DNA from: a virus
Direction: 5' to 3' (one strand)
DNA: 64,000 bases
IMG/VR virus record: IMGVR_UViG_3300045988_072133
Location: 39,171-103,170 of that record
This document shows, in pieces, positions 29,396 to 63,478 of this stretch (its first letter is position 1; every line of letters begins with the position of its first letter). The position numbers were made by a program, and so were the translations under genes. The notes beneath the pieces were generated by a model. It made no database searches. It saw only the letters and a program-made list of their open reading frames with translations, and was not told where the DNA came from.

Positions 29396-29407
29396 GCCAC
29401 TTCTTTC

Positions 29408-34874: not shown

Positions 34875-34895
34875 CAAACATTCAAATTTTACATT

Positions 34896-36769: not shown

Positions 36770-36791
36770 CTATTATTAACTAACACACAAG

Positions 36792-41972: not shown

Positions 41973-41978
41973 TCAGGA

Positions 41979-42049: not shown

Positions 42050-42076
42050 CAATTATTAACTAATAATAATATTATT

Positions 42077-43647: not shown

Positions 43648-43719
43648 GCTAGTGTAGCTTAATGGCAGAGCAGCTGATTTGTAATCAGCAGGTTGGGGGT
43701 TCGAGTCCCTTCACTAGCT
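43648..43719 (+). tRNA. tRNA-Thr (anticodon TGT)
   Basis: Acceptor GCTAGTG/CACTAGC, anticodon arm GCTGA-TTTGTAA-TCAGC, T-arm GGGGG-TTCGAGT-CCCTT. Confidence 0.8.
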
Positions 43720-43733
43720 CTTCAAATCACCAT

Positions 43734-44225
43734 ATGATGAAAGCTATACCTAAGATCGTAGGAGTAATCCTATTTTGTGGGCTTACAACGAAGCCTGCAA
43801 ACGTTCTCAACAGAGGCAGTACTGATGAGTATTCAGATACCTTAGTGCCTAAGTTTGAGATACCGCAAGAGCTTACAGTATGTGCTGTAAAGCAAGCTTG
43901 TATATACTATAACCTCCTTCATCCAGAGATTGTAGTAGCTCAATCTATATTAGAAACAGGTTATTATACCTCAAGAGTCTGCAAGGATTACAACAATATA
44001 CTTGGACTCTATGATTCTGCCAATAAGGACTATTTCAAGTTCGAAAATTGGTGGGATTCTGTAGAAGGATATAAAAACTTAGTTCAGTATAAATTAGGCA
44101 AAGATTCCTGCACAGTAGAAGAATATTACACTTTTTTAAGAGAACTGCCGTATGCAACGGACCCAGAGTACATTAACAAAATTCATACTATTGTTAGTAG
44201 GCATCAAAACACGGATGAAATATAA
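43734..44225 (+). CDS. FlgJ-type N-acetylglucosaminidase-like peptidoglycan hydrolase with N-terminal TM/signal (163 aa), candidate endolysin
   Basis: VVAQSILETGYYTS...NNILGL matches the glucosaminidase core (AQAALESGWG...NNLFGI). N-terminal hydrophobic IVGVILFCGL. Start taken at the Met after tRNA-Thr. Confidence 0.55.
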   Translation: MMKAIPKIVGVILFCGLTTKPANVLNRGSTDEYSDTLVPKFEIPQELTVCAVKQACIYYNLLHPEIVVAQSILETGYYTSRVCKDYNNILGLYDSANKDYFKFENWWDSVEGYKNLVQYKLGKDSCTVEEYYTFLRELPYATDPEYINKIHTIVSRHQNTDEI

Positions 44226-48190: not shown

Positions 48191-49094
48191 GAAAGAACTC
48201 GTATTGATGGCTATTGCTGCAGGTAAGCCTGTTGCTGAAGGTAATGCATTTCCTGTGTACACTGGTGTGGTACCGATGAAAATTATTGCTATTAACCCTA
48301 ACAAGAAGGAGTTGGAAGCAATCTATGGAAGACCCTTTGAGAACGATCCTGAGTATCTCGGTGTAGATCCTCGAACTGGTATTAAGCGTCTTCGTATAGA
48401 TTTCATTGGTAAAACTATTCCTGAGAAATGTAATGGTATCGAGATGACTACTCGTATCACTACGTGGGTAAGTGATGCTGTTCAGTATAATGCTGACAAG
48501 TCTAAGGTTAAGGTAATTAATCCGTATGGACAAACAACATGGCTCACTAAGGAAGAATTCAAGGAGAAGCGTTTACCTGATAATGTGCCTGCATCCATGT
48601 TCCTAATGGAGGACCCCCGCCCGTGTCTCATAGGTGAGGAAAGACTTATGCGAATAGTGCAAGCCTCAGTAAATATTCCCAGAGTTGTAGCAGATTTTGC
48701 TACTGGGGAGCTTATCAAGAATAAAGCCGATGCTAGCTGTAGATTTGATACCCTCAAAGATATGATAGGCAAAGGAAACCTTGTTGAGCTGAAGAGTATT
48801 ATTCCGGCTATGAAGCTTTTCAAGATGGGTGCTGGAGCCAGAACTACGGATGATAATCGTGTCTATCAGGACTGGTTCATAGACTATCCTATGAAGGGAG
48901 GATCTAATGACATGAAGTATTATGATGCTGCCCTAAAGAAAGCTAAAGCCAATGGTGCTTATCCCAACACAGACTTTGGTGATATGCCTTATGAAGTTCA
49001 AGAATACGTAGTTAAACCTACGAACTTGAGAGCTGCAGTAGCAGAAGTACCTGTAGCAGTAGGTATGGATGATGACTTAGAAGCTGACTGGTAA
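48177..49094 (+). CDS. hypothetical replication-module protein (305 aa), possible ssDNA-binding or annealing protein
   Basis: Sits between the Sak4-like ATPase and the primase. No diagnostic motif; function guessed from position. Confidence 0.3.
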   Translation: MTMNKKELVLMAIAAGKPVAEGNAFPVYTGVVPMKIIAINPNKKELEAIYGRPFENDPEYLGVDPRTGIKRLRIDFIGKTIPEKCNGIEMTTRITTWVSDAVQYNADKSKVKVINPYGQTTWLTKEEFKEKRLPDNVPASMFLMEDPRPCLIGEERLMRIVQASVNIPRVVADFATGELIKNKADASCRFDTLKDMIGKGNLVELKSIIPAMKLFKMGAGARTTDDNRVYQDWFIDYPMKGGSNDMKYYDAALKKAKANGAYPNTDFGDMPYEVQEYVVKPTNLRAAVAEVPVAVGMDDDLEADW

Positions 49095-50131
49095 TGGCTA
49101 TAGCGAGAGGGAAAGTAGTTGATGTTAAAGAAGAGGTCTTTTCGAAAGTCTCTGAAAGCGATATCCTATATTTCTATCTCGGAATAACACATTTGCCAAT
49201 AGTAATTTGTAGCCCTTTGAGGAAGGATACTAATCCTTCCTTGGGGTTACATTACAACAAAAGTGGTCATATAGTATATAAGGATTTTGCTACTGGGGAA
49301 GGAGGATCTTTGTATACTCTCCTTATGAAAATACTTAATTTATCATTTGGAGAGCTTATGGAGAATATCTATTTAAACCTCGTAGAATCGACTAACTGCA
49401 CTACTAGTACTCCTATATTACAATATGATAGAAAGAGTACTAAATCGGCTAAAAAGCCCTCTGTCGTGGATATTCAGGTTGCCCTTAGACCTTGGAAGTC
49501 TTGGGACAGAGAATACTGGAGTTCTTATGGTATAACCAAAGAATTTCTTAAGTTCGGAAAAGTTTTTCCCGTAAGTCACATCTTCCTAATACGAGAAGAT
49601 GAGTCCTGTACTTCTGTACCAGCAGAAAAACATGCTTATGTATACATTGAAGAGAAAGATAACAAGATTTCTCTGAAAGTTTATCAGCCATTTAGTAAAG
49701 ACTATAAGTGGATAAATAAGCATACTTCTGATGTGTGGGATTTATGGCAACAGTTACCACTGACTGGAGATTACCTTATTATTACTAGCTCCCGAAAAGA
49801 TGCTTTGTGTATATGGTGTAATACAGGAATTCCTGCCTGTAGTCTTCAAGCAGAATCATATCTCCCTAAAGAAAGTGTTATCAATGAGTTAAAAGGTAGG
49901 TTCAAGAATATCTTTATACTCTATGATAATGATTTCAGTAAACCTGTGAATCATGGTAGGGAATATGGTAAAACTCTTGCTAGTACCTTCGGATTACCAC
50001 AGATTGAGCTGCCTGAAGAACTTGGTGCTAAAGATAGCTCTGATCTATATCAGTTACATGGTAGAGAAGTTTTAAGGGACACAATATTTAAATTAACTGG
50101 TTATGAACAAGATCAAACTTGCCCGTTTTGA
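49094..50131 (+). CDS. DnaG-like DNA primase (degenerate zinc-binding region plus TOPRIM), 345 aa
   Basis: N-terminal CSPLRKDTNPSLGLHYNKSGHIVYKDFATGEGGSLYTLLMKI parallels the DnaG zinc-binding region (CPFH.E.TPSF...CFGCG.GG..I.F). TOPRIM-like YLIITSSRKDAL ... ILYDNDFSKPVNHG. Confidence 0.55.
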   Translation: MAIARGKVVDVKEEVFSKVSESDILYFYLGITHLPIVICSPLRKDTNPSLGLHYNKSGHIVYKDFATGEGGSLYTLLMKILNLSFGELMENIYLNLVESTNCTTSTPILQYDRKSTKSAKKPSVVDIQVALRPWKSWDREYWSSYGITKEFLKFGKVFPVSHIFLIREDESCTSVPAEKHAYVYIEEKDNKISLKVYQPFSKDYKWINKHTSDVWDLWQQLPLTGDYLIITSSRKDALCIWCNTGIPACSLQAESYLPKESVINELKGRFKNIFILYDNDFSKPVNHGREYGKTLASTFGLPQIELPEELGAKDSSDLYQLHGREVLRDTIFKLTGYEQDQTCPF

Positions 50132-50345
50132 TGATCCGAAGTGGACATATAAGCAATTGTGTAAGTATGCTCTCAAGTATAGGAAAATGCTTGCTAGCAA
50201 GGCGATTTCTTATCGTAACAAAGATAAACTCGCAGAAGCAATAGAGGTAAATTATGTGTATGAAACTCTTTACCGGTACAATTCAATTCCCCGGTATTTA
50301 CTCATTAAGAGATTAAAAGAAGCTCAAAAGTTGTTGTACAAATAA
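50103..50345 (+). CDS. hypothetical protein (80 aa)
   Basis: ORF overlapping the primase 3' end. Confidence 0.3.
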   Translation: MNKIKLARFDDPKWTYKQLCKYALKYRKMLASKAISYRNKDKLAEAIEVNYVYETLYRYNSIPRYLLIKRLKEAQKLLYK

Positions 50346-50367: not shown

Positions 50368-51126
50368 ATGTTCTATCTAAAAATTCGTTCTAAAAATCAC
50401 ACTGCGAATGGTCTTCGTAGAGTGATCAGGAGTACTAAAAGAGCCCTTCTGAGGCTTGGAAGCACAACTCCTACAGCGGTAGTTTTCCCGTATTTACGCC
50501 CAGGAACTGAGGTCCTTGAGCTGAACTCTGTAGACGCATGTAAAATCTCAGGTAACAAAACTTTGATGAAGCAAGCTTTTGATGAAGCACAAGTTACCTC
50601 CTCTGAATGGGGCCCTGTAAATGAAGAATGGGATAAATTCCCTGCGATCATTAAACATAACCATTCAAGTAAAGGGAATGGTATCTACTACATCAAAGAT
50701 CAAGAAGCTCTACGAGATTGGTTAGGATCTCATAATCCTGCTAATCACATCATAGAGAAGTATTACACGTACAACCGTGAATACCGACTTCATGTAACTA
50801 AGGATGGGTATTTCTATACCTGTCGGAAGATGCTTCGGAGAGATGCAGAAGAACGTTGGCATCGTCATGATAATAACAGTGTATGGATTGTCGAGGAAAA
50901 TCCTCAATTCGATAAACCTACTAACTGGGATGCTATCGTAGCAGAATGTGTCAAAGCCCTCAACGCTGTAGGATTAGATATTGCTGCTATTGATGTCAAA
51001 GTTCAATCTGCTGATAAAGGTCAGGATCCTAAGTTTATCATCCTGGAAACAAACAGTGCACCCTCGTTGGGTGAAAGAACCACAGAAGAATATATCAACA
51101 AGTTAACACAAATCGTAAATGCCTAA
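50368..51126 (+). CDS. ATP-grasp family ligase (RimK/glutathione-synthetase-like), 252 aa
   Basis: Blocks match the ATP-grasp pattern: SGNKTLMKQAFDEAQV; PAIIKHNHSSKGNGIYYIKDQEAL (P.V.K...GS.G.GV); IIEKYYTYNREYRLHV; AVGLDIAAIDV; FIILETNSAPSLGE (EvN..PG). Confidence 0.65.
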   Translation: MFYLKIRSKNHTANGLRRVIRSTKRALLRLGSTTPTAVVFPYLRPGTEVLELNSVDACKISGNKTLMKQAFDEAQVTSSEWGPVNEEWDKFPAIIKHNHSSKGNGIYYIKDQEALRDWLGSHNPANHIIEKYYTYNREYRLHVTKDGYFYTCRKMLRRDAEERWHRHDNNSVWIVEENPQFDKPTNWDAIVAECVKALNAVGLDIAAIDVKVQSADKGQDPKFIILETNSAPSLGERTTEEYINKLTQIVNA

Positions 51127-52102
51127 TACTATTCTTACAGGTACTGCTCTCTGCTGTGAGGCAGCAATTTCGGTGAAAGTGCTTAAGGGAGATGGGAGCA
51201 AATCCCCTTCGTATAACTACGAGCTACACAATAAGCCTTGCTTTGGAATATATTTTAACAGTGCTCCCAATAGCAATGGTCGAACTAAGACTTTAGTGGA
51301 TATCAAAGCAGATGTCTATCAATATATTGATCAAGACATGTTAGTTAAAAATCATGAAAATAACTACTGTTCTCTGGCTCCTGATCAACTGCATAAGTAC
51401 CACCGAGAGCTCGAATTTGTGTTCGCTAAGTATTCTTCTAAAGAAGATACGGGAGTAAAACTTTCTGTAGAGGAGACTACAAGGTTGTATGATATGGATC
51501 GATGCAAGGACGGAGTTCTTTGTCCTGCTATTAAGATCCATGTAGAAGCTAAGAAGATGAGTGCATATCAGTTTCTGTGTCTTCTTACTCTCATCAGATG
51601 TTCTTCTGAATATCCGAATGCTCTACTACTCAAAGAATGTTTTAACCTTCAAGAGAAAGGGTATTTCAGGGAGTTCTCTATCATGAGTCTCTTTGCTCTG
51701 CTGCAAAATCGTCTGCAATATTCTTACGACCAAGGACCTATACAGTGGGTAGAGGATAGCAGACACTATTTCTACAAACCCTCGTGTCTAGAATTCCTTC
51801 AGAAGAGAATAATGTGTAATTCTGCAGCTTATGTAGATACAAACTACAAGGTTCAGAATTTCTATGAAGTAGTTGAAAGAGGTCCTAGGAATAAGAGCAA
51901 ATTTGTTTTGCCCAAATACACAATGGGCGGAGGTGATGCGACTGGTAAAGAAAAGCTCTTTGATACGAATGCAATCATCACAACTATCTTTGATGGAGAC
52001 GTTCCAGAAGATCATGTAGAATGTTTTAAGAATATTCTAGCAGCTATCAAAGGCCAGTTTCCTAAACTGAAAGTGGACTATCCTCAAGAGTTAAAATCTT
52101 AG
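51119..52102 (+). CDS. hypothetical protein within the ligase cluster (327 aa)
   Basis: Cys-rich ORF between the ATP-grasp and GATase genes. No motif recognised. Confidence 0.4.
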   Translation: MPNTILTGTALCCEAAISVKVLKGDGSKSPSYNYELHNKPCFGIYFNSAPNSNGRTKTLVDIKADVYQYIDQDMLVKNHENNYCSLAPDQLHKYHRELEFVFAKYSSKEDTGVKLSVEETTRLYDMDRCKDGVLCPAIKIHVEAKKMSAYQFLCLLTLIRCSSEYPNALLLKECFNLQEKGYFREFSIMSLFALLQNRLQYSYDQGPIQWVEDSRHYFYKPSCLEFLQKRIMCNSAAYVDTNYKVQNFYEVVERGPRNKSKFVLPKYTMGGGDATGKEKLFDTNAIITTIFDGDVPEDHVECFKNILAAIKGQFPKLKVDYPQELKS

Positions 52103-52105
52103 TAT

Positions 52106-53077
52106 ATGACCTTAGAAGAAATCCAAAGGCTTAATGTAGGATTACTGAATTTGAGGGCAAATTATTCTGTAGTTCTAGTAAAGGATAACAAACTATGTCG
52201 TAGAACCTTTAAGAATAGCGATGCTTGCTTCTCAAGTTCGTGGGCCTATATAAAAAACTCAAACTCTCCCAAAGAGTATGATAAGGTTAGAATACGCATT
52301 AGTGCTTGTACGGATGCTAATATTAATATATTATTTGAGCAGGATAACCTAGTGTGCCTTAAGGAAGTTCAAGTTATAGAGTGGCTAGATCACCTGTGTG
52401 AAATATTTAGTAAATATAGTTTAACGTATAAAATTATACCAGCTACTATATATACAGGCTATGAGTATCATACAGGTGATGCTCTTAAAGGGATACACAT
52501 AGTAGTTAAAGCTCAAAATATTCCAGGATTCTATGTCAAATGGATAATGAGCTATGTCAGACTAATATATGAAAGTTCGACTTCGCTAGTGTTAAGAGAA
52601 ACTTTTACTCTGCGAAATCTTATTCCAGAGTTAAAATATCTCCCACTTCTATCAGCATTCATGTTTGTGAATACAACAGGAAGGGATACTCATGCGTTTA
52701 CTGCAATGGTAACACGAACAGCTATGCAGCCCAAAACATGCATATTTACTCCCAGAACGTTGAAGAGTATCCAAAAAGTAGTAAATGCACATAACTTTCC
52801 TGATCCTACTGTATACATAGATAAATGGCATGAGGAAGTATTTCTTCCTAGAAGCGTCTCTTATGAATCCGCTGAAAACCTAAGCTTTAGGGAAATGGCA
52901 AATAAGATATGGTACACTATATCACATACTGATGCACCTAAAACGAATGAGCTAGGACACTTTAGATTCAACGAGCCAATATATGTCAGAAAGTATGTAT
53001 TTCAGGATAAGATTCCTGAATCTATTGTAGATCTCTACAAAGCAATGTACAAAAAAATTTGTCCTTACATCAATTAG
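52106..53077 (+). CDS. hypothetical protein within the ligase cluster (323 aa)
   Basis: ORF with no recognised motif. Confidence 0.4.
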   Translation: MTLEEIQRLNVGLLNLRANYSVVLVKDNKLCRRTFKNSDACFSSSWAYIKNSNSPKEYDKVRIRISACTDANINILFEQDNLVCLKEVQVIEWLDHLCEIFSKYSLTYKIIPATIYTGYEYHTGDALKGIHIVVKAQNIPGFYVKWIMSYVRLIYESSTSLVLRETFTLRNLIPELKYLPLLSAFMFVNTTGRDTHAFTAMVTRTAMQPKTCIFTPRTLKSIQKVVNAHNFPDPTVYIDKWHEEVFLPRSVSYESAENLSFREMANKIWYTISHTDAPKTNELGHFRFNEPIYVRKYVFQDKIPESIVDLYKAMYKKICPYIN

Positions 53078-53081
53078 TTAC

Positions 53082-53714
53082 ATGAGAAAACCTATCAAAG
53101 TTTATGTTGTTGGCCATGATTGGTGCAACATCACAAGCTTTTTATTGTTTGACTTCGAGAAAGTTGATAATATTAAAGAAGCTGATATCGTAATGTTTAC
53201 GGGAGGAGAGGATATTAATCCTGCCCTTTATGGAGATGTTCCTCACCCCACAACTCATTTCTCGAACAGAGATGACATGGAGGTATTAGCTTTCAAAGAT
53301 GCTCCTAAAGAAGCCCTGCTTATTGGAGGCTGTAGAGGTGCTCAACTTTTAACAGCCCTCAGTGGTGGTAAGCTTTTCCAGCACGTTACTGGCCATAGTG
53401 GAAGTACTGGAGTTCATAATATTACAGCATCTGATAATCGCACAGTGAGGATTACCTCCTGTCATCATCAGATGATGAATCCCTATGATCTTCCTGAAGA
53501 AGACTATGAGCTGCTAGCCTGGTCTACTGTAAACCTGAGCTCAGCATATTGTATCGGAGCAGGTCCGGTAGAAGTTCCGCAAAACTTCAAAGAACCTGAG
53601 ATTGTCTATTATCCTAAGACACGTGCTTTATGCATTCAAGGACATCCCGAATGGATGCCTAAGGATCAACCTGTAATTGCATATATTAACGAACTTATTG
53701 AAAAGTATCTGTAA
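53082..53714 (+). CDS. class I glutamine amidotransferase-like / peptidase C26 (gamma-glutamyl hydrolase, PuuD-like), 210 aa
   Basis: FTGGEDINPALYG, nucleophile elbow LIGGCRGAQLL (G-x-C-R-G-x-Q) and SCHHQMM (HHQ), as in the PuuD/C26 family. Confidence 0.6.
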   Translation: MRKPIKVYVVGHDWCNITSFLLFDFEKVDNIKEADIVMFTGGEDINPALYGDVPHPTTHFSNRDDMEVLAFKDAPKEALLIGGCRGAQLLTALSGGKLFQHVTGHSGSTGVHNITASDNRTVRITSCHHQMMNPYDLPEEDYELLAWSTVNLSSAYCIGAGPVEVPQNFKEPEIVYYPKTRALCIQGHPEWMPKDQPVIAYINELIEKYL

Positions 53715-54517
53715 TGAAAATTAAAGAATTTTTAATCGGCTCAGATCCTGAGCTGTTCATCGTAGACAAATCTAAGGATAATAAGATTATCTCTTCCATT
53801 GGGTTGATTCCCGGTGTTAAGGGACATGCCTACAAACCTGCAGAGCTTCCTGAAGGATTTGGCCTGCAGATTGACAATATCCTCGCGGAGTTTAATATTC
53901 CTCCTACGTGTTATAAGGAGGATTTTATAGCTCACATGATGGTCATGAAAGACTATATTCGAGACTATGTGAAATCTAAGAATCCGAATTATGATATCTG
54001 TTGCAAAGCATCTGCTTTAGTAGATGAGGATCAACTCCAGAGTGATGAGGCAAAATTGTTTGGATGTTCACCAGATTACAATGCATGGCTGGGAGAGCAG
54101 AACCCTCGTCCCCAGGGAGATACTACAAATTTAAGAACGACGGGTTGTCATTTCCATATCGGATATGAGGGTCATGATCGTGACACTTCAATGGAATTAG
54201 TTCGCATTCTGGATTTGTTCCTTGGAGTGCCTTCAATTCTCATCGATGAGGATGATCGAAGACGACAGCTTTATGGTAAGGCAGGATGTTTCCGATTCAC
54301 TTCGTATGGTGTAGAATATCGAGTTATGTCCGGATACTTCATCAACTCCCCCAGGCTTATTGGATGGTGCTTTGATCAGATCCTGGCAGCTATTGAATTC
54401 CTGAACAACGGAGATTCAGTAGATGAAGATGCTGCAGATATTGTGGATGCTATTAACAATAACAACCGCAAAGCTGCAGAAGATTTAATTAAGAAGTATA
54501 AAATTAATTTAGTCTAA
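53714..54517 (+). CDS. glutamine-synthetase-fold amidoligase (GCS2/Amidoligase_2-like COOH-NH2 ligase), 267 aa
   Basis: LIGSDPELF (G.D.E), GCHFHIGYEG (H.H) and YGVEYRVMSG (E.R). These are the three catalytic-core signatures of YbdK/amidoligase-type carboxylate-amine ligases. Confidence 0.55.
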   Translation: MKIKEFLIGSDPELFIVDKSKDNKIISSIGLIPGVKGHAYKPAELPEGFGLQIDNILAEFNIPPTCYKEDFIAHMMVMKDYIRDYVKSKNPNYDICCKASALVDEDQLQSDEAKLFGCSPDYNAWLGEQNPRPQGDTTNLRTTGCHFHIGYEGHDRDTSMELVRILDLFLGVPSILIDEDDRRRQLYGKAGCFRFTSYGVEYRVMSGYFINSPRLIGWCFDQILAAIEFLNNGDSVDEDAADIVDAINNNNRKAAEDLIKKYKINLV

Positions 54518-54522
54518 GAATA

Positions 54523-56013
54523 ATGTGTGGAATATTTGGATTTGCTGGTAAACTCGGCAATCACGAATTTAATATTCTTAAGTTCTCTATACTTGGAGCA
54601 ATTAACGATAGCAGAGGGGGTGATTCTGCAGGAGCGTTTATTGATGGTAAATGTGAATGGGGTATCAGCGATGAGAAACTCTTTGCTAATTTTGCTACCA
54701 AGAATAAGTTTCTAAAGGGTTACAGAGGAGTATCAGTACAACACGCACTTGGTCATTGTAGGAAAGCATCTGTGGGAGCTAAAACCATCAAGGAAGCTCA
54801 GCCTGTATGTATTCCTAATGATGAGGATTCGAAGATCGACTTCGCAATGATTCATAATGGTACTCTTTTGAATCATAACGAACTGAAGAATAAGTATCTC
54901 GCAAAGGTGCCTGATCATTTTACTGACTCCCAAATATTCGCCAATGTGGTTTACTATCATGGCTTCAAAGTATTAGAGGAGTATGATGGTGCAGGAGCTT
55001 TTGCATTCGTAGATTACAGGAAGAAAATTCCTACATTCTACTTATTCAAGGGAGAGAGTCCTCAGTACAGAAGTAGTGTTACTTCATCTGAGGAACGTCC
55101 TCTTTTCTGGGTTAAGACTCCTGAAGGAATATGGTTTTCTTCAATTAAGGAATCTCTTGAACTCATAACCTACGGAGATTATGACATTGAAAGTGTTCCT
55201 GGGAATACCCTTATCATTATCCAGAACGGTCGTGTTATATCTACAAGAAAGTATGATCGTAGTGGCCGATTTCAGGTCAGTTATGGCTCGAAATACTATG
55301 CTAAAGACTACGATAGGGAAGACTACTATGGATATGGGTCATATGGCTACAAGAACACATCGGCGGGGGCGACGACTCCGAAGAAGAACGAAGAGGAGCC
55401 GTGGTTCAAGGTAGGAGATACTAAAACTTTCGAAGCTACAAGTATTGTAGCAGGTGAAGCAGAGGCCCGCTATGATTATGTCAATAGCAATAAGGTTATC
55501 TTCAAACCTGATGGACGTTATTATAAGGGCAAAGTCCTTATGAGTGGTCCCTACAGAATTTCAGAATACGGCTTCGAGAATACCTACTCGAATCTCGGAA
55601 CTGATGTTGTAGCACGTCCCAAGACATTCTATTTCTTCCAGGGCTTCCTGATGAAAGATGCTCTTTGCATGCATATAGCACGCAGAATCTATGAAATGGC
55701 TGGGGACAAGTTTAAGGATACTATGCTTCGGAAGTTAACTATGGGATGTTTCTATGATCCTGAGTTAAAGAAGTTCTACACTCGGAAAGGTAAGTTATTT
55801 ACAGGAACTTATCCTGTATATTTCACTCTTACCAATCGGGTATACAAGATTCAGCGTGGAGAGATTTATCAATACACAGAGTCTTATAATCCGAATTCCT
55901 GTAGTGTATGGAAAACGTACTGTCCACAGTATGAGGGTCCGGAGGTTCCGGTAAAGTTCGCTAACTTGATTGAAAAGTCAGCTAAGAAGATCATGTCTAT
56001 TTACAACGTTTAA
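54523..56013 (+). CDS. class II (Ntn-type) glutamine amidotransferase domain protein with unknown C-terminal domain (496 aa)
   Basis: N-terminus MCGIFGFAG is the canonical Cys1 nucleophile start of GAT-II enzymes (AsnB MCGIFG, GlmS MCGIVG). DSRGGDSAGA follows. No asparagine-synthetase PP-loop seen in the C-terminus. Confidence 0.6.
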   Translation: MCGIFGFAGKLGNHEFNILKFSILGAINDSRGGDSAGAFIDGKCEWGISDEKLFANFATKNKFLKGYRGVSVQHALGHCRKASVGAKTIKEAQPVCIPNDEDSKIDFAMIHNGTLLNHNELKNKYLAKVPDHFTDSQIFANVVYYHGFKVLEEYDGAGAFAFVDYRKKIPTFYLFKGESPQYRSSVTSSEERPLFWVKTPEGIWFSSIKESLELITYGDYDIESVPGNTLIIIQNGRVISTRKYDRSGRFQVSYGSKYYAKDYDREDYYGYGSYGYKNTSAGATTPKKNEEEPWFKVGDTKTFEATSIVAGEAEARYDYVNSNKVIFKPDGRYYKGKVLMSGPYRISEYGFENTYSNLGTDVVARPKTFYFFQGFLMKDALCMHIARRIYEMAGDKFKDTMLRKLTMGCFYDPELKKFYTRKGKLFTGTYPVYFTLTNRVYKIQRGEIYQYTESYNPNSCSVWKTYCPQYEGPEVPVKFANLIEKSAKKIMSIYNV

Positions 56014-56021
56014 CATTAGTA

Positions 56022-57488
56022 ATGTTACAGAGAACAACTCGTATTACAACGGCTTCAGGTAAAAGAGTTCTGAAGTCGAACTGTTGCACCATCAATGGTG
56101 AGTACTACATCAAAGAAGAGGAAGCTGTTAAGATCGGAACATCATGGTATCTGAAGCAGGATCCGAGAATCTTCTATGATTATGGCTCACGATCCTGGAG
56201 GAAGACTCGTGGTGTTAACATCTGCAAGGGAGTTGTAGGATGGGATTCATCAAATACTCGTCCTATAATTGGAGCTTTTGAAGTAGACCACACTCGCAAC
56301 ATTGATGTTGCTAAGCTAGATTCCTGTGGTAATATTCAAAATATGGTTACGTATATGGATCGGTCTCTTCTCCAAGGGCTGGTCCATTATAACAAAAACC
56401 TGGGAATCTACGAAGACACTACTGCACTCAGTCCTATCCTTAAGAAGGTAGAAGGTGTTTTAGCTAACACTATAGGACAGGGTGTATACAACTATTCTTT
56501 TAATCAGGAGTATTCTTCAAGTAAACACATGGAGAAGTTCCTCAAATATCCCCGCGATATGAGAATTGATAACCCTATCAATATCCCTGATGTAAAAGAA
56601 TTTGGAGAGTTCTCCTTTGGTCTAGAGTTCGAAACTGCTGCTGGAAAGTTGAGCCAAGCACAATGTTTTAACTTAGGACTTATTCCTCTGCGAGATGGTT
56701 CTATCTCAGGTATTGAGTATACTACTATACCTATGAAAGGACCTGAGGGATTTAATCTCTTAATCAATCAGGTGAAGACTCTACAAAAGAGTACTACCTT
56801 TGATAAGGATTGTTCCCTTCACGTACATTTAGGAGGCTTTCCTGTCGAGGCGAAAACTATCTGGGCCCTTTATAAGCTCCTAGTGATTATAGAGCCTCAA
56901 ATCGCTCGTATTATGCCTTATTTCGCATTTAACACAGGTAAGTTCAAGTCAAAGGGTAAAGACTACTGTACAAAGTTGCGTAGGTATTCTTCTTTTGAGG
57001 AATACTATATCTATTGTTCGGGAGATCGCATGCGCTTTGATGGTAACCTGACATATCCTCATCCTATGGATGAAGAAGACCGTGCTAAGTGGAATATTCA
57101 TGCGCGCTATGTATGGGCGAATCTTATCAACATGCTTTTCAAGAAGCAAGGTAAGACTGTAGAGTTCCGAATTCACGCTCCGACGTTTAACATTCAGAAG
57201 ATTATAAACTGGATGTTTATTTGCTCAGGTATACTCCAGTTCGCTATTAAGAATAAAGATCAGTTGCTGAAGAGTAGCATAGGAGCTACAGCGATTACTT
57301 TAGAGGATATCATCTCAAATGTTTATTCTCGTCGTGTTTCGCTGCAGCTTACTGACTATATTCAGTATCGAGAAATATTCTTTAGACAGCTGGCTAATAA
57401 GTACAGTGATCCAGCAGGATTAATTGACTTACGTATTGACCAAGAGCAAGACTTCGGGACTAACTTAGTTACTACAGTACGACACTAA
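56022..57488 (+). CDS. second GS-fold amidoligase-like protein (Amidoligase_2-like), 488 aa
   Basis: FSFGLEFETAAG (G.E.E), CSLHVHLGGF (H.H) and KTVEFRIHAP (E.R), with the same motif order as the 53714-54517 paralogue. Confidence 0.5.
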   Translation: MLQRTTRITTASGKRVLKSNCCTINGEYYIKEEEAVKIGTSWYLKQDPRIFYDYGSRSWRKTRGVNICKGVVGWDSSNTRPIIGAFEVDHTRNIDVAKLDSCGNIQNMVTYMDRSLLQGLVHYNKNLGIYEDTTALSPILKKVEGVLANTIGQGVYNYSFNQEYSSSKHMEKFLKYPRDMRIDNPINIPDVKEFGEFSFGLEFETAAGKLSQAQCFNLGLIPLRDGSISGIEYTTIPMKGPEGFNLLINQVKTLQKSTTFDKDCSLHVHLGGFPVEAKTIWALYKLLVIIEPQIARIMPYFAFNTGKFKSKGKDYCTKLRRYSSFEEYYIYCSGDRMRFDGNLTYPHPMDEEDRAKWNIHARYVWANLINMLFKKQGKTVEFRIHAPTFNIQKIINWMFICSGILQFAIKNKDQLLKSSIGATAITLEDIISNVYSRRVSLQLTDYIQYREIFFRQLANKYSDPAGLIDLRIDQEQDFGTNLVTTVRH

Positions 57489-57492: not shown

Positions 57493-58131
57493 ATGTTTGG
57501 TAGTTGGAATAAGTTACTAAATGTTGACGCTGTTAAACCTATTCTGTCGGTACTCAATGAAGAGTACCGGCAGTATGAGGTTTATCCACCCAAAAAGTGT
57601 GTTTTTGAAGCTTTTAGACAGTGCCCTTATGAGAAAGTAAGGGTAGTTGTTATTGGTCAAGACCCATATCCTCAAAAAGGATTCGCTACAGGTATAGCTT
57701 TTGCAAATCCTGTAGAAGTAAAGAACATTAGCCCTTCTTTAACAATTCTTAGAGATCGAGTCTTTAGAGATTTTGGAAGGCGTAATGATGAGTTTGACCA
57801 AACTCTTATATCCTGGGAACAACAAGGAGTGTTGTTACTTAATGCAGCACTAACTGTAAGAGCCCATCAGCCTGAAAGCCACACACATTACTGGCATCCC
57901 TTTATACGAGATCTTATCCTGGCGCTTAATCAATATAATCCAGGATTAATCTATGTATTGTTAGGAAAAGTTGCAGAAACATTTAGGAAATACGTAGGTC
58001 CTAATAACCACGTATTAACATATCCTCACCCAGCCTACTTCTGTAGGTTAGGATGTGGATTTGAAGCCACCATGTTTACGGATATCAATAAGATACTTCG
58101 TGATCTTAATGGTGACGAAATTAAGTTCTAG
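57493..58131 (+). CDS. ung: uracil-DNA glycosylase (family 1), 212 aa
   Basis: VVVIGQDPYPQKGFATGIAF (E. coli Ung [21 protein letters not shown]) and GVLLLNAALTVRAHQPESH (Ung GVLLLNTVLTVRAGQAHSH). Confidence 0.8.
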   Translation: MFGSWNKLLNVDAVKPILSVLNEEYRQYEVYPPKKCVFEAFRQCPYEKVRVVVIGQDPYPQKGFATGIAFANPVEVKNISPSLTILRDRVFRDFGRRNDEFDQTLISWEQQGVLLLNAALTVRAHQPESHTHYWHPFIRDLILALNQYNPGLIYVLLGKVAETFRKYVGPNNHVLTYPHPAYFCRLGCGFEATMFTDINKILRDLNGDEIKF

Positions 58132-58842: not shown

Positions 58843-59878
58843 AGAACTATCCCTCAACATTAGTGAGCCGGAATATCGAAAGCTAGGAGGCTTCTCGTAT
58901 TCTATGCTTGCTAAGTTCCTTCGCTCTGGAGATCCCAAAGTATTAGTTACTCCCTCTCACGATGAGTCGGATGCACTAAGATTTGGATCATTAGTAGATT
59001 GCTTGATGACTGAACCAGATCTTTTAGAAGACAGGTTCTTCATTACATCTATGAAAACTCCTTCTCCAACAATCACTTCCGTAATGTTGTATATCTACAA
59101 AAAAGTTCCTAATGCCAAAAGCTTTACCTTTGTACCTAACGAAGTAAAGCTAGAAGCTCTAGATAATTTTGATTATGCAACATCTTGGAGTAGTAAAACA
59201 AGATTAGATCGCTTAGATAAGCAATCATTCTATTATACATTGTTGCAAAGAAGTGAAGGAAAGATTGTCATGTCTGAAGAAGATCTTACACTAGCAACCC
59301 TATGTGTTAAGATTCTTAAGACTCATCCCTTTACTGAGAAGTATATGGGAGATGAAGATCCTTTCAATCCTAAGATTGAGAAGATTAATCAGTTAAAATT
59401 CTCATCTACATATCATGGGAATCTTATTAGATGTATGTTTGATAGAATTATAGTAGACCATGATGCCAAAACAATACAGCCTATTGATCTCAAAACCTCT
59501 GGTAAGAAAGAGGAGAAGTTTGAGCTCTCAGCATTGGAATGGGATTATTATATCCAAGCATCTATGTATACTCAGATTCTATTAGATGTAATTTCTGAAG
59601 ACGAGTACTTCAAGGATTTCACAATTCTTCCTTTCAAATTTGTTGTCATTAACAGGTTCGAAAGAACTCCTATGGTATGGTCATACCCGTTTAGTCGTCT
59701 AAATAGAAATATTATAGATGATCAGCAAACTTTGTTGCAGAAGAATGGGTATAAGAGTTGGCGTGAGCTTATTAAAGAAGCCGCGTGGCACATTGAGAAC
59801 AATAAGTTTGATTATTCTTACGAGACTTATATGTCTGGAGGAGAACGAACTATTGATTTCTCTAAATATCTTCGTTAA
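58793..59878 (+). CDS. PD-(D/E)XK-type exonuclease-like protein (361 aa)
   Basis: DRIIVDHDAKTIQPIDLKTSGKK ... YYIQASMYTQI resembles D...(I/V)D(L)K(T/S) ... Q.Y nuclease cores of RecB/Cas4/YqaJ-like proteins. Confidence 0.4.
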   Translation: MITKRMNSTSLMMKSIKELSLNISEPEYRKLGGFSYSMLAKFLRSGDPKVLVTPSHDESDALRFGSLVDCLMTEPDLLEDRFFITSMKTPSPTITSVMLYIYKKVPNAKSFTFVPNEVKLEALDNFDYATSWSSKTRLDRLDKQSFYYTLLQRSEGKIVMSEEDLTLATLCVKILKTHPFTEKYMGDEDPFNPKIEKINQLKFSSTYHGNLIRCMFDRIIVDHDAKTIQPIDLKTSGKKEEKFELSALEWDYYIQASMYTQILLDVISEDEYFKDFTILPFKFVVINRFERTPMVWSYPFSRLNRNIIDDQQTLLQKNGYKSWRELIKEAAWHIENNKFDYSYETYMSGGERTIDFSKYLR

Positions 59879-62409
59879 TGAGAAATATCGATGCGTTAAC
59901 GTATTTTAAAGGAGATGATTTGGCAGCTAAAGTTTGGACTGATAAATATGCTCTCCGTAATGAGAAGGGCGAGATTGTTGAGTCTAATCCCGATCAAATG
60001 CATCTTCGCATGGCAAAAGAATTTGCTAGAATAGAAGCTAATTATGGTGGTCCCAATAAGCTTAGTGAAGAGCAGATTCTTGGACTTTTCCAAGACTTTC
60101 GTTATATAGTTCCTGGTGGATCAGTAATGGCAGGACTTGGAAGTACTGCTGTGGGATCTCTCTCCAATTGCTTCGTAATTGGGCAGCCCGAGGATTCGTA
60201 CTCGGGTATTATGAAACTTAGAGAAGAGCAAGCTCACCTTATGAAACGACGTGGTGGTGTGGGAAAGGACCTTTCAACACTTCGTCCTTCAGGTGCTGCT
60301 GTTAAGAACGCAGCTAAGAGTTCTACTGGTGCTGCATCTTTTATGGATGTAGATTCTGCAATAACTACAGAGGTTGCTCAGCGAGGAAGACGAGGAGCTC
60401 TGATGTTAACATTAGATATTCGTCATCCTGATGTTGAAGAGTTTATTACTCGGAAGCAAGATCTAACAAAAGTTACTGGGGCTAACATTAGTGTTAAGGT
60501 CACAGATGACTTTATGGAAGCAGTTAAGAATGATCATGATTACATTCTTCGCTGGCCTGTAACTATAAGAGCAGAAAATACTGCCTTTAAAGATCTTGAA
60601 TATGGTAAGCTATTATGCCTAGAGCATCCTCGCAAGGATACATGTTGTTACTACAAGAAGGTAAGAGCTCGTAAACTCTGGGAACTATTAATTCATTGTG
60701 CATGGAATACTGCTGAACCTGGAATCATGTTCGAGGACCGTCACGTTGAATTTAGTCCTGATGGAGTTTATCCTCAATATCGAGGTGTATCCACGAATCC
60801 TTGTGGTGAAATCTTTATGCAACCGTATGATAGCTGTAGATTGATTCATATTAATCTCACATCGTTTGTTAAACGAGCTTATTATCCCGATGCTTCTTTA
60901 GATCTGGATAACCTGTATAGGGTTGCAAAAATCGCAATCAGGCTGGGAGATGATCTTATAGACCTAGAAGTAGAGGCTATAGATCGTATATTAGGGCATA
61001 TAACATCTTCTAAAGGTAATAACAGTCGAGAGTTTAATCTCTGGATGTCTGTTAGAGATGCTGCATTATCTAGTAGAAGATGTGGAATAGGATTCACAGG
61101 GCTTGCAGATACTCTTGCAATGCTTAAGACAGGGTTTAATGATGATGGCATCGGCACAGTTGATGTTATCATGAACACTATCTTTAAAGCAGAACTTGAG
61201 AGTACTATAGATCTAGCCGAAGAGAGAGGTACTTTTGTAGGTTGGGATAAGGAGAGAGAACTTGCTCATGTAGAAGGCAATGAATGGTATCAAATGGTGG
61301 CTAAAACATTCCCCGAACTCTATGATCGGATGATGAAAGTAGGTCGCCGTAATGTATCATTCTCTACTGTTGCTCCTACAGGAACTGTAAGTATTCTTAC
61401 TCAGACGTCTTCAGGTATTGAACCCGTATTCTCCCTATATTATACACGTCGTAAGAAGTGTGTAGAAGGAGAACCTCACAATTTTGTAGATCAGAATGGT
61501 GAGAAATTCCAAGAGTTCAAGGTATTTCATAGACCCTTCCTAGAATGGGCAAGGTTAAAGCTAGACCTTCCTACTATAGAAGTAACATTGGAATGCATTG
61601 AGAAGATGTCTGCTGAAGAACTATCTCGCTTTATCACTTGGTCTCCCTGGTATAAGAATACTGCCCCTGAGATCGACTGGGATACTCGTCTTAGAATGCA
61701 ATCAGTAGTTCAATACTATACTACTCATAGTATTTCTAGTACCCTAAATCTTCCCAGTAGTACTACAGAAGGAGAAATTAGCAAGATCTATTTCAAGGCT
61801 TGGGAATATAATCTTAAAGGAGTAACAGTTTATCGAGATGGCTGTAGAGCTGGTGTGCTGGTAACAGATACTAAGCCTAAACAAGTCTTCGAGCAACATA
61901 GTGCTCCTAAGAGACCAAAAGTTCTCAATGCTGAACTTCATGTAGTTAAAGTTAAGAAAGTTAAGTATGCAGTAATTGTAGGCTTAATGGAAGGCAAACC
62001 TTATGAAACTTTCGCATTTGAGTTAGGAGAAGGAAATTTCTTACCTCAAACTGGTAAGATCATTAAGGTTAAACGCGGATGCTATAATTTTGTAGGTGAT
62101 CACGACCTCATTATTGAGAATATTCATCTTGCCAATGATAAGCTAGAGGAGAGGTCAAGTTCGATCTATATCTCTATGCTTCTACGACACGGTGCACCTA
62201 TAGAATATGTCATAGCTACCGCAAAGAAAGTGAATGCAAACATTGCTTCTTTCACATCAGCTGTATGTCGTGTGCTAATGAAGTACTGTACCAAGGATAT
62301 TGAAGAAGATACATGTCCTGAGTGTGGTACTAAGCTATCACGTGAAGCTGGATGTAAGAAATGTAACAATTGTGGTTATTCACTGTGTTTATTAATGTTA
62401 GTAAAATGA
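59878..62409 (+). CDS. nrdJ: ribonucleotide reductase catalytic subunit, class II (B12-dependent NrdJ)-like, with C-terminal zinc ribbon (843 aa)
   Basis: N-terminal VWTDKYALRNEKGE...RMAKE, active-site TNPCGEI and LSNCFV/YDSCRLIHINL blocks. C-terminal CPECG...CKKCNNCG ribbon. No NrdB-like small subunit is visible in the window. Confidence 0.65.
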   Translation: MRNIDALTYFKGDDLAAKVWTDKYALRNEKGEIVESNPDQMHLRMAKEFARIEANYGGPNKLSEEQILGLFQDFRYIVPGGSVMAGLGSTAVGSLSNCFVIGQPEDSYSGIMKLREEQAHLMKRRGGVGKDLSTLRPSGAAVKNAAKSSTGAASFMDVDSAITTEVAQRGRRGALMLTLDIRHPDVEEFITRKQDLTKVTGANISVKVTDDFMEAVKNDHDYILRWPVTIRAENTAFKDLEYGKLLCLEHPRKDTCCYYKKVRARKLWELLIHCAWNTAEPGIMFEDRHVEFSPDGVYPQYRGVSTNPCGEIFMQPYDSCRLIHINLTSFVKRAYYPDASLDLDNLYRVAKIAIRLGDDLIDLEVEAIDRILGHITSSKGNNSREFNLWMSVRDAALSSRRCGIGFTGLADTLAMLKTGFNDDGIGTVDVIMNTIFKAELESTIDLAEERGTFVGWDKERELAHVEGNEWYQMVAKTFPELYDRMMKVGRRNVSFSTVAPTGTVSILTQTSSGIEPVFSLYYTRRKKCVEGEPHNFVDQNGEKFQEFKVFHRPFLEWARLKLDLPTIEVTLECIEKMSAEELSRFITWSPWYKNTAPEIDWDTRLRMQSVVQYYTTHSISSTLNLPSSTTEGEISKIYFKAWEYNLKGVTVYRDGCRAGVLVTDTKPKQVFEQHSAPKRPKVLNAELHVVKVKKVKYAVIVGLMEGKPYETFAFELGEGNFLPQTGKIIKVKRGCYNFVGDHDLIIENIHLANDKLEERSSSIYISMLLRHGAPIEYVIATAKKVNANIASFTSAVCRVLMKYCTKDIEEDTCPECGTKLSREAGCKKCNNCGYSLCLLMLVK

Positions 62410-62921
62410 AGTTAGTAGTTAATTATCGCTCAGTAGATCCTATGATCAAACCTGTAATTACTAAGAATGGTGAGTGGTTTGATCTAATGGCTGCAGAAAA
62501 TGTAGAATTCGCAGCTCCCCATAATGCATATAATACTCGTATTACAGAGTATGATGCAAAGAAAGTATCTTTAGGTATTGCTATGGCTTTACCTAAGGGG
62601 ATTGAAGCTGTAATGGTTCCTCGCAGCAGTCTTTATGGAACTAAGGGCGTAACATTAGTAAATAGTCAAGGTGTAATTGATTCCTCATATAGTGGCAGCG
62701 ATGATATTTGGTCTGCTTATCTTAAGGCAGATCGAGTTAGTACCATTCATGTGGGAGAAAGAATCGTTCAGTTCAGACTACAACCTTCTCAGAGAGCTTC
62801 TATCTGGACTAAGATTAAGTGGCTCTTTATATCTAAGATTGAGTTTAATAAGGTAGGATGCCTTAATAATCCTAATCGAGGAGGATATGGCATGTCTGGA
62901 GGATATAAAGAAGTAAAGTAG
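62406..62921 (+). CDS. dut: dUTPase (trimeric dUTP pyrophosphatase-like), about 171 aa
   Basis: VPRSSLYGTKGV (motif II RSG-like) and GVIDSSYSGSDD (motif III G.ID.DYRG-like). ATGA overlap with the RNR stop. Confidence 0.6.
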   Translation: MKLVVNYRSVDPMIKPVITKNGEWFDLMAAENVEFAAPHNAYNTRITEYDAKKVSLGIAMALPKGIEAVMVPRSSLYGTKGVTLVNSQGVIDSSYSGSDDIWSAYLKADRVSTIHVGERIVQFRLQPSQRASIWTKIKWLFISKIEFNKVGCLNNPNRGGYGMSGGYKEVK

Positions 62922-63478
62922 TGAGTGTATTAAGTACTGCAATCGGTATAATTGTAGGGGGTATGGTTTTAGCCTCCGTAGGTAAGATTTATTTGGGAAT
63001 CTATCAAACTATTAAGCAACAGAATCTTGCTGCTAATAAGTATAAAGTTTCATTTAAGAAGCACTTTAAGAAAGTCAAAGTTCCTCTTATCAAGATGAAA
63101 GTAGGTGAAGGACTTCATTATTTCTTAGTAGATAGTGGAGCTACTGATAATGTAATCACTAAGAGTTTCTTTGATACCGTAGATCACAAATATTTCAACG
63201 ACCTGCATTATGCAAAGCATATAGTGTCAACTAATGGCACAACGAAGAAATGTCCCTACATGGAAACAACATTGTCTTTTAAGCGAGATTACTTTGAAGA
63301 CATCCCATTCCTAATAACAGATATAAAAGATGCTGTTGATTTTATTAAAGAAAAGTCTAATATTACTATTGTAGGAATATTGGGCTCAACATTCTTTGAT
63401 AAATATCGTTGGGCTATAGATTTTGACGAACGTTGTATTTGGATTAACCCATTAGAAACAACTCAGAAGAATGAATAA
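62921..63478 (+). CDS. membrane-anchored retropepsin-like (clan AA) aspartic protease, 185 aa
   Basis: N-terminal TM helix LSTAIGIIVGGMVLASVG. Catalytic-type motif HYFLVDSGATDNVI (hydrophobic-hydrophobic-D-S/T-G-A). Confidence 0.5.
   Translation: MSVLSTAIGIIVGGMVLASVGKIYLGIYQTIKQQNLAANKYKVSFKKHFKKVKVPLIKMKVGEGLHYFLVDSGATDNVITKSFFDTVDHKYFNDLHYAKHIVSTNGTTKKCPYMETTLSFKRDYFEDIPFLITDIKDAVDFIKEKSNITIVGILGSTFFDKYRWAIDFDERCIWINPLETTQKNE

Follow-up and report, generated by a model that had tools for sequence, protein, structure and literature searches.

The 64,000-nucleotide stretch of viral DNA analyzed here (IMG/VR record IMGVR_UViG_3300045988_072133, positions 39,171 to 103,170; hereafter the window) carries a cluster of seven genes, g1 to g7, at 50368-57488 (Table 1). 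All seven open reading frames (ORFs) lie on the + strand, and the preliminary description of co-directional, tightly packed genes inside the replication module proved exact in its coordinates. Successive junctions measure -8, +3, +4, -1, +5, and +8 nt, followed by +4 nt to a uracil-DNA glycosylase (UDG) gene, which leaves no room inside the cluster for promoters or terminators. A promoter/terminator consensus scan gave nothing above shuffled expectation, with a consensus set that lacks Bacteroidota promoters. The phage is crAss-like (gut), and its nearest relative is the uncultured phage cr108_1 (Crassvirales, Steigviridae, Asinivirinae, Pipoluvirus). Among 50,697 phage records, near DNA matches over the cluster came only from cr108_1 (GenBank and RefSeq copies), at 75.7% identity. 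Judged from sequence, the cluster encodes three predicted ATP-dependent carboxylate-amine ligases (g1, g5, and g7) and two predicted cysteine amidohydrolases (g4 and g6), together with two paralogs of one narrow, previously unannotated family (g2 and g3). It is the crAss-like copy of a cassette that has been predicted since 2009, not a new kind of system.

The five enzyme assignments made earlier agree with Pfam, PHROG, and NCBIfam profiles and with the catalytic motifs, the ATP-grasp protein falling below Pfam cut-offs. For this protein, g1, the RimK family scored 18 bits against a cut-off of 21, and TTL and R2K_2 were also under theirs. In NCBIfam, the RimK family came first (E = 1.3e-5), followed by cyanophycin synthetase, PylC, and MptN; against TIGR00768, g1 reached 24.7 bits (cut-off, 143.4). 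The motifs GNGIY (103), REYR (137), and ETNS (227) are present. When 10 sequences from six phage lineages were aligned, H99, G103, G105, E138, H142, K154, D209, E227, and N229 were near-invariant and R140 was invariant, and the nucleotide- and Mg-binding positions of the ATP-grasp fold were kept across all six lineages. The protein is 40% identical to phi14:2 g038 and matches the ATP-grasp proteins of KBNP1711 and Clew-10 (E = 4e-8 and 7e-7); no relative of solved structure was found by sequence. The class-I glutamine amidotransferase (GATase)-fold protein g4 matched Peptidase_C26 (E = 1e-12, 48.7 bits versus a cut-off of 20.5) and PHROG 7218 (E = 5.7e-33), with a weak NCBIfam match to gamma-glutamyl-CDP-amidate hydrolase. 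Both the Cys-His-Glu triad and the HPE motif of class-I GATases were found, in GCRG at 83 (Cys84), HHQ at 128-130, and GHPE at 187 (His188/Glu190). Its nearest solved chains are 3fij (E = 1.4e-5) and 7d4r (E = 3.7e-3, "probable glutamine amidotransferase"); these relatives are PuuD/SpuA-type proteins.

Both putative amidoligases were matched significantly in a profile hidden Markov model (HMM) search, each by a different Pfam family. The phiEco32-type COOH-NH2 ligase g5 matched PF14395 (E = 1.2e-9, 38.3 bits versus a cut-off of 25) and, over its full length, PHROG 3815 (E = 9.4e-71); it carries GSDPE (9), CHFHIG (145), and VEYRV (200) and is 31-37% identical to the KBNP1711, Clew-10, and phi14:2 proteins. 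The Amidoligase_2 protein g7 matched PF12224 over residues 237-404 (E = 6.8e-6, 26.6 bits versus a cut-off of 22) and PHROG 2443 over residues 225-415 (E = 1.9e-17), with GLEFE (200), LHVHLG (266), and VEFRI (380). It is 25.6% identical to phi14:2 g041 over the full length and has no relative of solved structure. The motifs G.[DE].E, H.H, and E.R follow one another in that order in both proteins, which are predicted to be carboxylate-amine ligases of the glutamine synthetase (GS) superfamily. The two had been called paralogous. The common order of motifs stands, but no similarity between g5 and g7 was detectable by BLASTP or hhalign (E = 0.02-0.04), and a broader profile alignment pairs H.H with H.H and E.R with E.R without significance. 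As far as their sequences tell, they are paralogous at the superfamily level only.

In four related contigs (L005, L007, L013, and L014), the g5 gene is split just before CHFHIG by an insert of about 1.14 kb, whose ORF encodes a double-motif LAGLIDADG homing endonuclease. No group I intron was found in the insert by Rfam. With the g5 halves in different frames, the insert resembles an intron or the insertion of a free-standing endonuclease rather than an intein. In two other contigs (L027 and L028), just an 84-89-aa fragment of the C26 gene is present, followed by extra ORFs; this gene is probably interrupted by another mobile insertion or decaying.

For g6, the class-II GATase, Pfam scores exceeded the cut-offs for GATase_6 (46.2 bits versus 27) and GATase_7 (29.5 versus 25). 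The motifs MCGIFG (1), HCRKAS (78), HNGT (111), and TDSQ (134) complete the class-II catalytic set, namely the Cys1 nucleophile, the carboxylate Arg, the Asn-Gly oxyanion hole, and the alpha-amino Asp. Both nucleophiles claimed earlier, this Cys1 and the GCRG cysteine of g4, are present. What had been described as a 300-aa C-terminal domain indeed belongs to no known family, but it is actually a disordered low-complexity linker of about 40-50 aa (YYAKDYDREDYYGYGSYGYK...) followed by a domain of about 200 aa. This domain has no sequence family or PDB match and weak fold matches only. Its conserved positions are limited to glycines and aromatics, and the lack of conserved polar residues fits docking rather than catalysis. 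Thus, it is probably a docking or binding domain and not a synthase domain, and the analysis narrows the plausible roles of the class-II GATase protein.

The remaining two proteins, g2 and g3, had been listed as two unknowns of about 320 aa. No known family was found for them, as stated, but their relationship had been missed: they are paralogs belonging to a fast-evolving core family of the cassette. They are 20% identical over 289 aa by BLASTP (E = 1e-3) and align by hhalign over 260 columns with a probability of 96.7% (E = 3e-10). In addition, the g2 model matched the BFVD model of the cr108_1 g3 ortholog (E = 6.5e-14, TM 0.65-0.70). The family is small: searching 5.8 billion proteins gave 17 clusters, and exhaustive profile searching of 1.84 billion gave 20 representatives. 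One member lies between the ATP-grasp and C26 genes in each of the crAss-like contigs L018, L027, L028, and L029, and another lies directly before the C26 gene in L025, a 287-kb contig (HMM E = 5e-71 to 1e-19). The family is a fixed component of the crAss-type cassette and is usually single-copy, so the duplication into g2 and g3 is specific to the Pipoluvirus-like branch.

The g2 model is confident, and its best fold match is PafA, a protein ligase, although the resemblance to the GS/Pup-ligase fold is weak. Further fold matches (scores in parentheses) were to glutamate-cysteine ligases (GCL; 4.8, 4.6, 3.6, and 3.3), Dop (4.3), a YbdK-like protein (4.1), GshAB (4.0), a GS homolog (3.5), and two guanido kinases. 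Across 29 family members, only C41, F42, N82, L86, R160, and E164 are invariant, and conserved GS metal-binding glutamates and a conserved phosphate-binding arginine were not encountered. E-x-E on strand 1 is limited to part of the g2 branch, and the strand equivalent to H.H is variable. In relatives whose enzymes are 82-87% identical to those of the window, g2 is 62% and g3 38% identical; over the wider set of relatives with enzymes of 74-87% identity, g3 reaches only 31-38%. Close relatives gave dN/dS values of 0.57-0.92 (g3) and 0.25-0.49 (g2). The five enzymes ranged over 0.02-0.37 and were mostly <0.26, the value of 0.37 coming from g6 in one near-identical pair. Purifying selection, as read from these ratios, clearly points to five functional enzymes, and g2 and g3 appear either weakly constrained or diversifying.

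Relatives of g2 and g3 outside the crAss-like phages are suggestive only. In other lineages, two hypothetical proteins of about 300 aa are encoded just upstream of the PF14395 ligase, and the pair in LAh_9 is paralogous (E = 2e-4). BLASTP and hhalign comparisons of g2/g3 with such pairs from Kuravirus-like, LUZ24-like, Privateervirus, and Lahexavirus phages were negative. With the g2/g3-family HMM, three of these hypothetical proteins ranked as the top 3 of 229 ORFs (E = 0.03-0.46). Foldseek returned a 319-aa PaP4 protein (E = 0.013, TM 0.25), the length of the PaP4 ortholog of LUZ24 gp14. For the Privateervirus protein, just 2 close relatives were found, too few for a profile. Comparison of g2/g3 with the two amidoligases by hhalign (E = 0.17-0.55) is uninformative, since g5 versus g7 fails as well.

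The seven-gene order is conserved as a unit. All seven genes occur in identical order in cr108_1, relatives of g2 were found in 13 IMG/VR contigs, and the full order is kept in all 11 of the contigs that span the whole cluster. This synteny is far beyond chance. The order in crAss-like phages is primase, (small ORF), ATP-grasp, g2/g3 family, C26, PF14395, class-II GATase, and PF12224, followed in most by UDG, and among Asinivirinae-type crAss-like phages the cassette forms a stable module. By tblastn with g5, the PF14395 ligase was found in 317 of the 50,697 phage records, including LUZ24-like, phiEco32-like, and 7-11-like phages, CW02, and phi14:2. The hosts named are Gram-negative genera: Pseudomonas (121), Escherichia (94), Vibrio (22), and Aeromonas (11), with smaller groups of Proteus, Salmonella, Cronobacter, Pseudoalteromonas, and Klebsiella phages and Cellulophaga phage phi14:2. 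Seven annotated loci were inspected, those of KBNP1711 (Kuravirus-like), Clew-10 (LUZ24-like), vB_CsaP_009 (Privateervirus), LAh_9 (Lahexavirus), CW02 (Zobellviridae), WD615 (Vibrio), and phi14:2. In all seven, the PF14395 ligase is accompanied by the amidoligase, the class-II GATase, and the ATP-grasp protein, usually with a gamma-glutamyl cyclotransferase (GGCT). The cluster lies beside primase/helicase or polymerase genes, or among nucleotide-metabolism genes; the enzyme set of the 287-kb contig is likewise beside primase/helicase or polymerase genes. The earlier description of the cassette stands in its content but gave it too much weight, since the set is already widely annotated, as the 317 records attest.

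The same arrangement has been reported in UFV-P2 (PMC3890496). Prediction of the cassette is traced to Iyer et al. 2009 (PMC10580990); comparative genomics first drew attention to it in phiEco32 and LUZ24-type phages. Duhaime et al. 2017 described a seven-gene "peptidoglycan modification cassette," hypothesized to change the cell surface against superinfection, and listed RIO-1, phiEco32, 7-11, PA11, tf, MR299-2, LUZ24, PaP3, and CW02 as carriers (PMC5498523). In a directed-evolution study of a Bruynoghevirus, both evolved lines had missense changes in the amidoligase and class-II GATase genes (PMC11450229), which is the nearest thing to functional data on the cassette. In agreement with the preliminary description, full-text literature searching found predictions only and no experimental characterization.

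The preliminary description did not mention that the usual cyclotransferase is absent here. When four phage GGCT or gamma-glutamylamine cyclotransferase (GGACT) proteins were compared by tblastn with the whole 64-kb window, beyond which lie about 36 kb of genome, nothing was found below E = 0.1. Such a gene is present in phi14:2, L018, L028, KBNP1711, Clew-10, CW02, and LAh_9, and it directly follows the primase gene in other crAss-like versions and in phi14:2. Salinivibrio phage CW02 has four paralogs of 64-77 aa interspersed in its cassette, each with LEENV, LEENL, or LEDNV as its C-terminus; the ligases might use them as carriers, tags, or precursors. Nothing equivalent was found in the window. 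An unannotated protein of about 73-77 aa follows the class-II GATase gene in Kuravirus-like, Privateervirus, and Lahexavirus cassettes (37-54% identical, E = 1e-13 to 1e-27) and is absent from the crAss-like version.

A small ORF lies between the primase gene and g1, and its membership of the cassette is uncertain. Its position is filled in 13 of 13 related IMG/VR loci, with fast divergence (55-99% identity), and L027 and L029 carry a 70-71-aa ORF of dissimilar sequence there. It matches no Pfam family. A GGACT remnant was ruled out, since no similarity was found. As a tag or carrier it was likewise rejected: its C-terminus shows no conservation of acidic residues or Gln, and it is unlike the small proteins of other cassettes. 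Inspection of the N-termini showed no evident signal peptide on any cassette protein.

The cassette is flanked by primase and UDG genes, and the UDG gene is followed by genes for a DUF1064 endonuclease, a PD-(D/E)XK exonuclease, a ribonucleotide reductase, and dUTPase. An ORF adjoining the dUTPase gene matches retroviral-type aspartyl protease domains (Asp_protease_2, E = 4e-6, above cut-off), an unusual neighbor for a replication module. The ribonucleotide reductase gene is intact in the window. The same gene is split by an inserted ORF in cr108_1 and contains intein and HNH domains in L018, and the NrdD genes of L027 and L029 are interrupted by HNH or GIY-YIG endonuclease genes. In this phage group, mobile insertions concentrate in the replication genes. 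Outside the window, cr108_1 encodes a GMP reductase/IMP dehydrogenase-like protein beside ThyX (E = 1e-32, below family cut-offs). Within the window, coding switches from the - strand (to ~28.9 kb) to the + strand (from ~28.9-30.3 kb) at ~29000-30300, and the sign of the GC skew flips at the same place. Seven tRNA genes were found, of which tRNA-Gln overlaps the start of ORF 41978-42421 and tRNA-Thr that of the glucosaminidase ORF. Probably, both ORFs start further downstream, or ORF 41978-42421 is spurious.

Table 1. Coordinates of the cassette genes and of other features, in the window unless a contig is named
Feature	Position	Strand	Size and basis or remark
g1, RimK-like ATP-grasp carboxylate-amine ligase (predicted)	50368..51126	+	252 aa; PHROG 2599, E = 2.5e-30
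g2, narrow fast-evolving family	51119..52102	+	327 aa; GS/GCL/Pup-ligase-like fold, weak
g3, paralog of g2	52106..53077	+	323 aa; fastest-evolving gene of the cluster
g4, class-I GATase-fold/peptidase C26 gamma-glutamyl amide hydrolase (predicted)	53082..53714	+	210 aa; Peptidase_C26
g5, phiEco32-type COOH-NH2 ligase type 2 (predicted)	53714..54517	+	267 aa; PF14395
g6, class-II GATase (predicted)	54523..56013	+	496 aa
g6 N-terminal domain, aa 1-245, class-II (Ntn) glutamine amidotransferase/amidohydrolase	54523..55257	+	Pfam, motifs
g6 linker, aa 255-294, Tyr/Gly/Asp-rich	55285..55404	+	Predicted disordered, pLDDT <50
g6 C-terminal domain, aa 295-496, mixed beta/alpha fold	55405..56013	+	Confident ~200-aa model
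g7, Amidoligase_2 (PF12224) ligase (predicted)	56022..57488	+	488 aa, ~195-aa N-terminal extension; Pfam/PHROG
Small ORF	50103..50345	+	80 aa; between primase gene and g1; 29-nt overlap with primase end
Primase, bacterial-type	49094-50131	+	Upstream flank of cluster
UDG	57493-58131	+	Downstream flank of cluster
Ribonucleotide reductase gene	59878-62409		843 aa, intact
Asp_protease_2 ORF	62921-63478	+	185 aa
Glucosaminidase-domain protein	43662-44225	+	E = 2e-17; early region
HNH endonuclease and ExoX-like C-terminal-domain protein	35454-35978 and 30283-30693	+	Early region
tRNA genes (Asn, Met, Ser, Arg, Leu, Gln, Thr)	24491-24564, 31026-31100, 33896-33981, 34801-34875, 36689-36770, 41979-42050, 43648-43720		n = 7
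g5 insert	L007 11028-12162		Window ~54145, between g5 codons 144/145
ORF of g5 insert	L007 11180-12001		273 aa
C26 gene fragment with extra ORFs	L027 6240-7210; L028 4861-6740
Ribonucleotide reductase gene of cr108_1, split	L001 15432-17870
Ribonucleotide reductase gene with intein and HNH domains	L018 16490-16957
GMP reductase/IMP dehydrogenase-like protein of cr108_1	L026 21626-22657 (record 66625-67656)	-
CW02 small paralogs	L022 2206-2400, 3209-3442, 3442-3675, 5511-5726		64-77 aa
~73-77-aa protein after class-II GATase gene	L003 12632-12865, L021 12787-13008, L023 13285-13506

The earlier view of the cluster as a ligase/amidotransferase toolkit is supported by the families, the motifs, the fold of the class-II GATase domain, and the synteny. 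The reading that we favor, to which we give about an even chance, is a cytoplasmic pathway in which gamma-glutamyl-type amides are made, amidated, and trimmed, with a small amine or peptide as the acceptor in preference to a protein or DNA. The enzymes would be active during phage replication. The GS-type ligases would activate carboxylates to acyl-phosphates and couple amines to them, with gamma-glutamyl or isopeptide-type bonds as the most plausible products, while g1 would add an amino acid, probably glutamate. Having no recognizable synthase domain, g6 may deliver glutamine-derived ammonia to a neighboring ligase, g5 or g7 being the candidate partners, for carboxylate amidation or, alternatively, may act as an EgtC-like gamma-glutamyl amidohydrolase. 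The C26 protein g4 would strip gamma-glutamyl groups, as the GGACT cyclotransferase would in relatives. The g2 and g3 proteins could serve as non-canonical subunits, possibly pseudo-ligases, that bind a variable partner.

Characterized C26 enzymes (PuuD/SpuA-type and gamma-glutamyl-CDP-amidate hydrolase), GGACT, and class-II GATases (PurF, GlmS, AsnB, and EgtC) have small-molecule substrates. A small acceptor is favored because these relatives act on small molecules and because a set of three ligases and two or three hydrolases is more like a pathway than like a pair of enzymes that adds and removes a tag. Such an acceptor would most likely be cytoplasmic, either the stem peptide of the peptidoglycan precursor, as proposed in the literature, or a polyamine-like amine. 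The position of the homing-endonuclease insert, at the codons just before the H.H motif of g5, was counted together with the low dN/dS of the enzymes as a sign of constraint. The literature proposal itself is peptidoglycan side-chain modification or superinfection exclusion (PMC5498523; PMC10580990).

Several points weigh against a small-molecule pathway of this kind. The acceptor is inferred only. The peptidoglycan idea rests on analogy: the cassette has no linked Mur-ligase, transglycosylase, or export function, and its proteins all look cytoplasmic. The GGACT gene, which supports the gamma-glutamyl theme elsewhere, is absent from the window, and g1 scores under the Pfam gathering thresholds. 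The fast evolution of g2 and g3 is hard to explain if the substrate is a conserved small molecule, and a protein partner is suggested instead; PafA, the best fold match of g2, is a protein ligase, and the families nearest to g1 (RimK, TTL, and R2K) include protein C-terminal ligases.

These same features bear on protein tagging, in which RimK-like and GS-fold ligases would add glutamate, other residues, or a small tag to side chains or C-termini of proteins from the host or the phage. Preparation of the tag, or its removal in a Dop-like manner, would fall to the C26 and Ntn hydrolases, and g2/g3 would provide PafA/Dop-like target recognition in an arms race. The PafA-like fold of g2 agrees with this, as does the far faster evolution of g2/g3 than of the enzymes, which is expected of protein-protein interfaces in conflict, and the small CW02 paralogs with their shared endings could be tags or carriers. 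The families nearest to g1 modify protein C-termini (PMC4431377). However, neither within nor beside the window's cassette was a small protein found that resembles Pup or LysW and has a conserved C-terminus of the acidic or Gln type, and g2/g3 show no conservation of the GS-type metal-binding glutamates. The characterized relatives of the C26, GGACT, and class-II GATase proteins are small-molecule enzymes, and three different ligases are not obviously needed for tagging, so we regard it as unlikely. Quite improbable, in our estimate, is a related phage conjugation system in which degenerate GS/PafA-fold proteins, namely g2/g3 and their counterparts in other podoviruses, act as fast-evolving subunits for target recognition and steer the three ligases to add, amidate, and trim a gamma-glutamyl-type adduct on a host macromolecule or on phage DNA. 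If true, this would be a Pup-like or RimK-like modification machine in phage-host conflict, with defense or translation proteins as examples of targets.

The location of the cassette, always within a replication/nucleotide module and here with primase and UDG on its flanks and ribonucleotide reductase and dUTPase downstream, would also suit hypermodification of DNA or nucleotides, the ligases and amidotransferases putting an amino acid or amide on a base or its precursor to evade restriction. Amidoligase and amidotransferase Pfam domains have been found beside 5-HMUDK/aGPT-Pplase genes in metagenomic viral contigs (Lee et al. 2021; PMC8989533). The C-terminal domain of g6 weakly resembles the DNA-binding little-finger domain of Y-family polymerases. 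Yet no 5-hmU DNA kinase, aGPT-Pplase, dUMP/dCMP hydroxymethylase, TET/JBP, or DpdA was found among the 40 + strand ORFs of the window that were scanned against Pfam, and no such hallmark is annotated in the inspected stretch of cr108_1, which has ordinary ThyX, dUTPase, and UDG. Also counted against it, we know of no base modification in LUZ24- or phiEco32-type phages, and hypermodification seems very improbable. An auxiliary metabolic set without a single pathway, boosting the glutamine/glutamate, polyamine, or glutathione-type metabolism of the host for replication (through gamma-glutamylation and release of amines and mobilization of nitrogen) but yielding no specific new product, is judged just as improbable. 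Auxiliary metabolic genes are typically close to their host homologs, whereas four of the seven proteins have no NCBIfam match, the remaining matches are far below cut-off, and the housekeeping enzymes of hosts are very distant. That six or seven genes strictly co-occur, and in strict order, in unrelated phage families argues for one coupled function, and a phage-specific, fast-evolving non-enzyme component would be unexpected. On the other side, the cassette has nucleotide-metabolism genes around it, bacterial gamma-glutamyl polyamine utilization pathways are built from C26/PuuD-type hydrolases and GS-like ligases, and papers on marine phages class these genes as auxiliary metabolic (PMC10580990).

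About 0.6% of sequenced phage genomes carry the cassette, including those of therapeutic Pseudomonas (Bruynoghevirus) and Escherichia coli (Kuravirus) phages as well as several lineages of the abundant crAss-like phages of the gut. Purifying selection keeps its six or seven genes together, a length of about 7 kb that amounts to 7% of a crAss-like genome. The value of the finding lies in the newly defined g2/g3 component and in the question of function. Identifying the product, be it a modified cell-wall precursor, a metabolite of the gamma-glutamyl type, or an adduct on proteins, would account for a conserved step in the infection cycle of podoviruses and could matter for the design of phage-therapy strains.

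Among known systems, MurT/GatD, the AsnB1/LtsA-type class-II amidotransferases, and the ATP-grasp D-aspartate ligase amidate or branch the cytoplasmic peptidoglycan precursor. Like the cassette, they combine both GATase classes with an ATP-grasp enzyme acting on carboxylates and amines, which is the chemistry invoked in the literature. Unlike them, the cassette has no Mur-ligase-fold partner and its class-II GATase has no asparagine-synthetase (PP-loop) domain; homology was not detected beyond the superfamily level. In the PuuA/PuuD and SpuA-type polyamine utilization pathways, and in butirosin synthesis with the ATP-grasp enzyme BtrJ and the cyclotransferase BtrG, a gamma-glutamyl amide is made and later removed. 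Such bacterial gamma-glutamylation pathways share with the cassette a GS-fold or ATP-grasp ligase and a C26 hydrolase or GGCT-type cyclotransferase. They differ in their remote sequences (E = 1e-5 at best), and the cassette adds a class-II GATase, three ligases, and a phage-specific family and lacks the linked oxidase/dehydrogenase steps of the catabolic pathway. RimK, MptN, cyanophycin synthetase, and PylC, the best family matches of g1, share its ATP-grasp Mg/ATP residues, but compared with RimK, g1 is shorter (252 aa) and scores far under family cut-offs. The pupylation enzymes PafA and Dop are weakly like g2/g3 in fold, with g2/g3 lacking conserved GS metal ligands.

The closest counterpart is the cassette of phiEco32, LUZ24, PaP3, 7-11, RIO-1, and CW02. 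Differences exist in gene order, since in the window the ATP-grasp gene comes first and the class-II GATase gene lies between the two amidoligase genes, and in content, since most classical cassettes, unlike the window, have a GGCT/GGACT gene. The window has a recognizable C26 gene, whereas the gene of about 175-205 aa that takes this place in other lineages matches no Pfam family, and the C-terminal regions of the class-II GATase cannot be aligned between the window and those lineages. Shared with the window are the PF14395 ligase, the PF12224 amidoligase, the RimK-like ATP-grasp protein, and a class-II GATase with an N-terminal Cys and a non-canonical C-terminal region, as well as the short-tailed phages, the Gram-negative hosts, and the early/replication position beside primase or helicase genes, which the cluster described here occupies beside its own primase gene.

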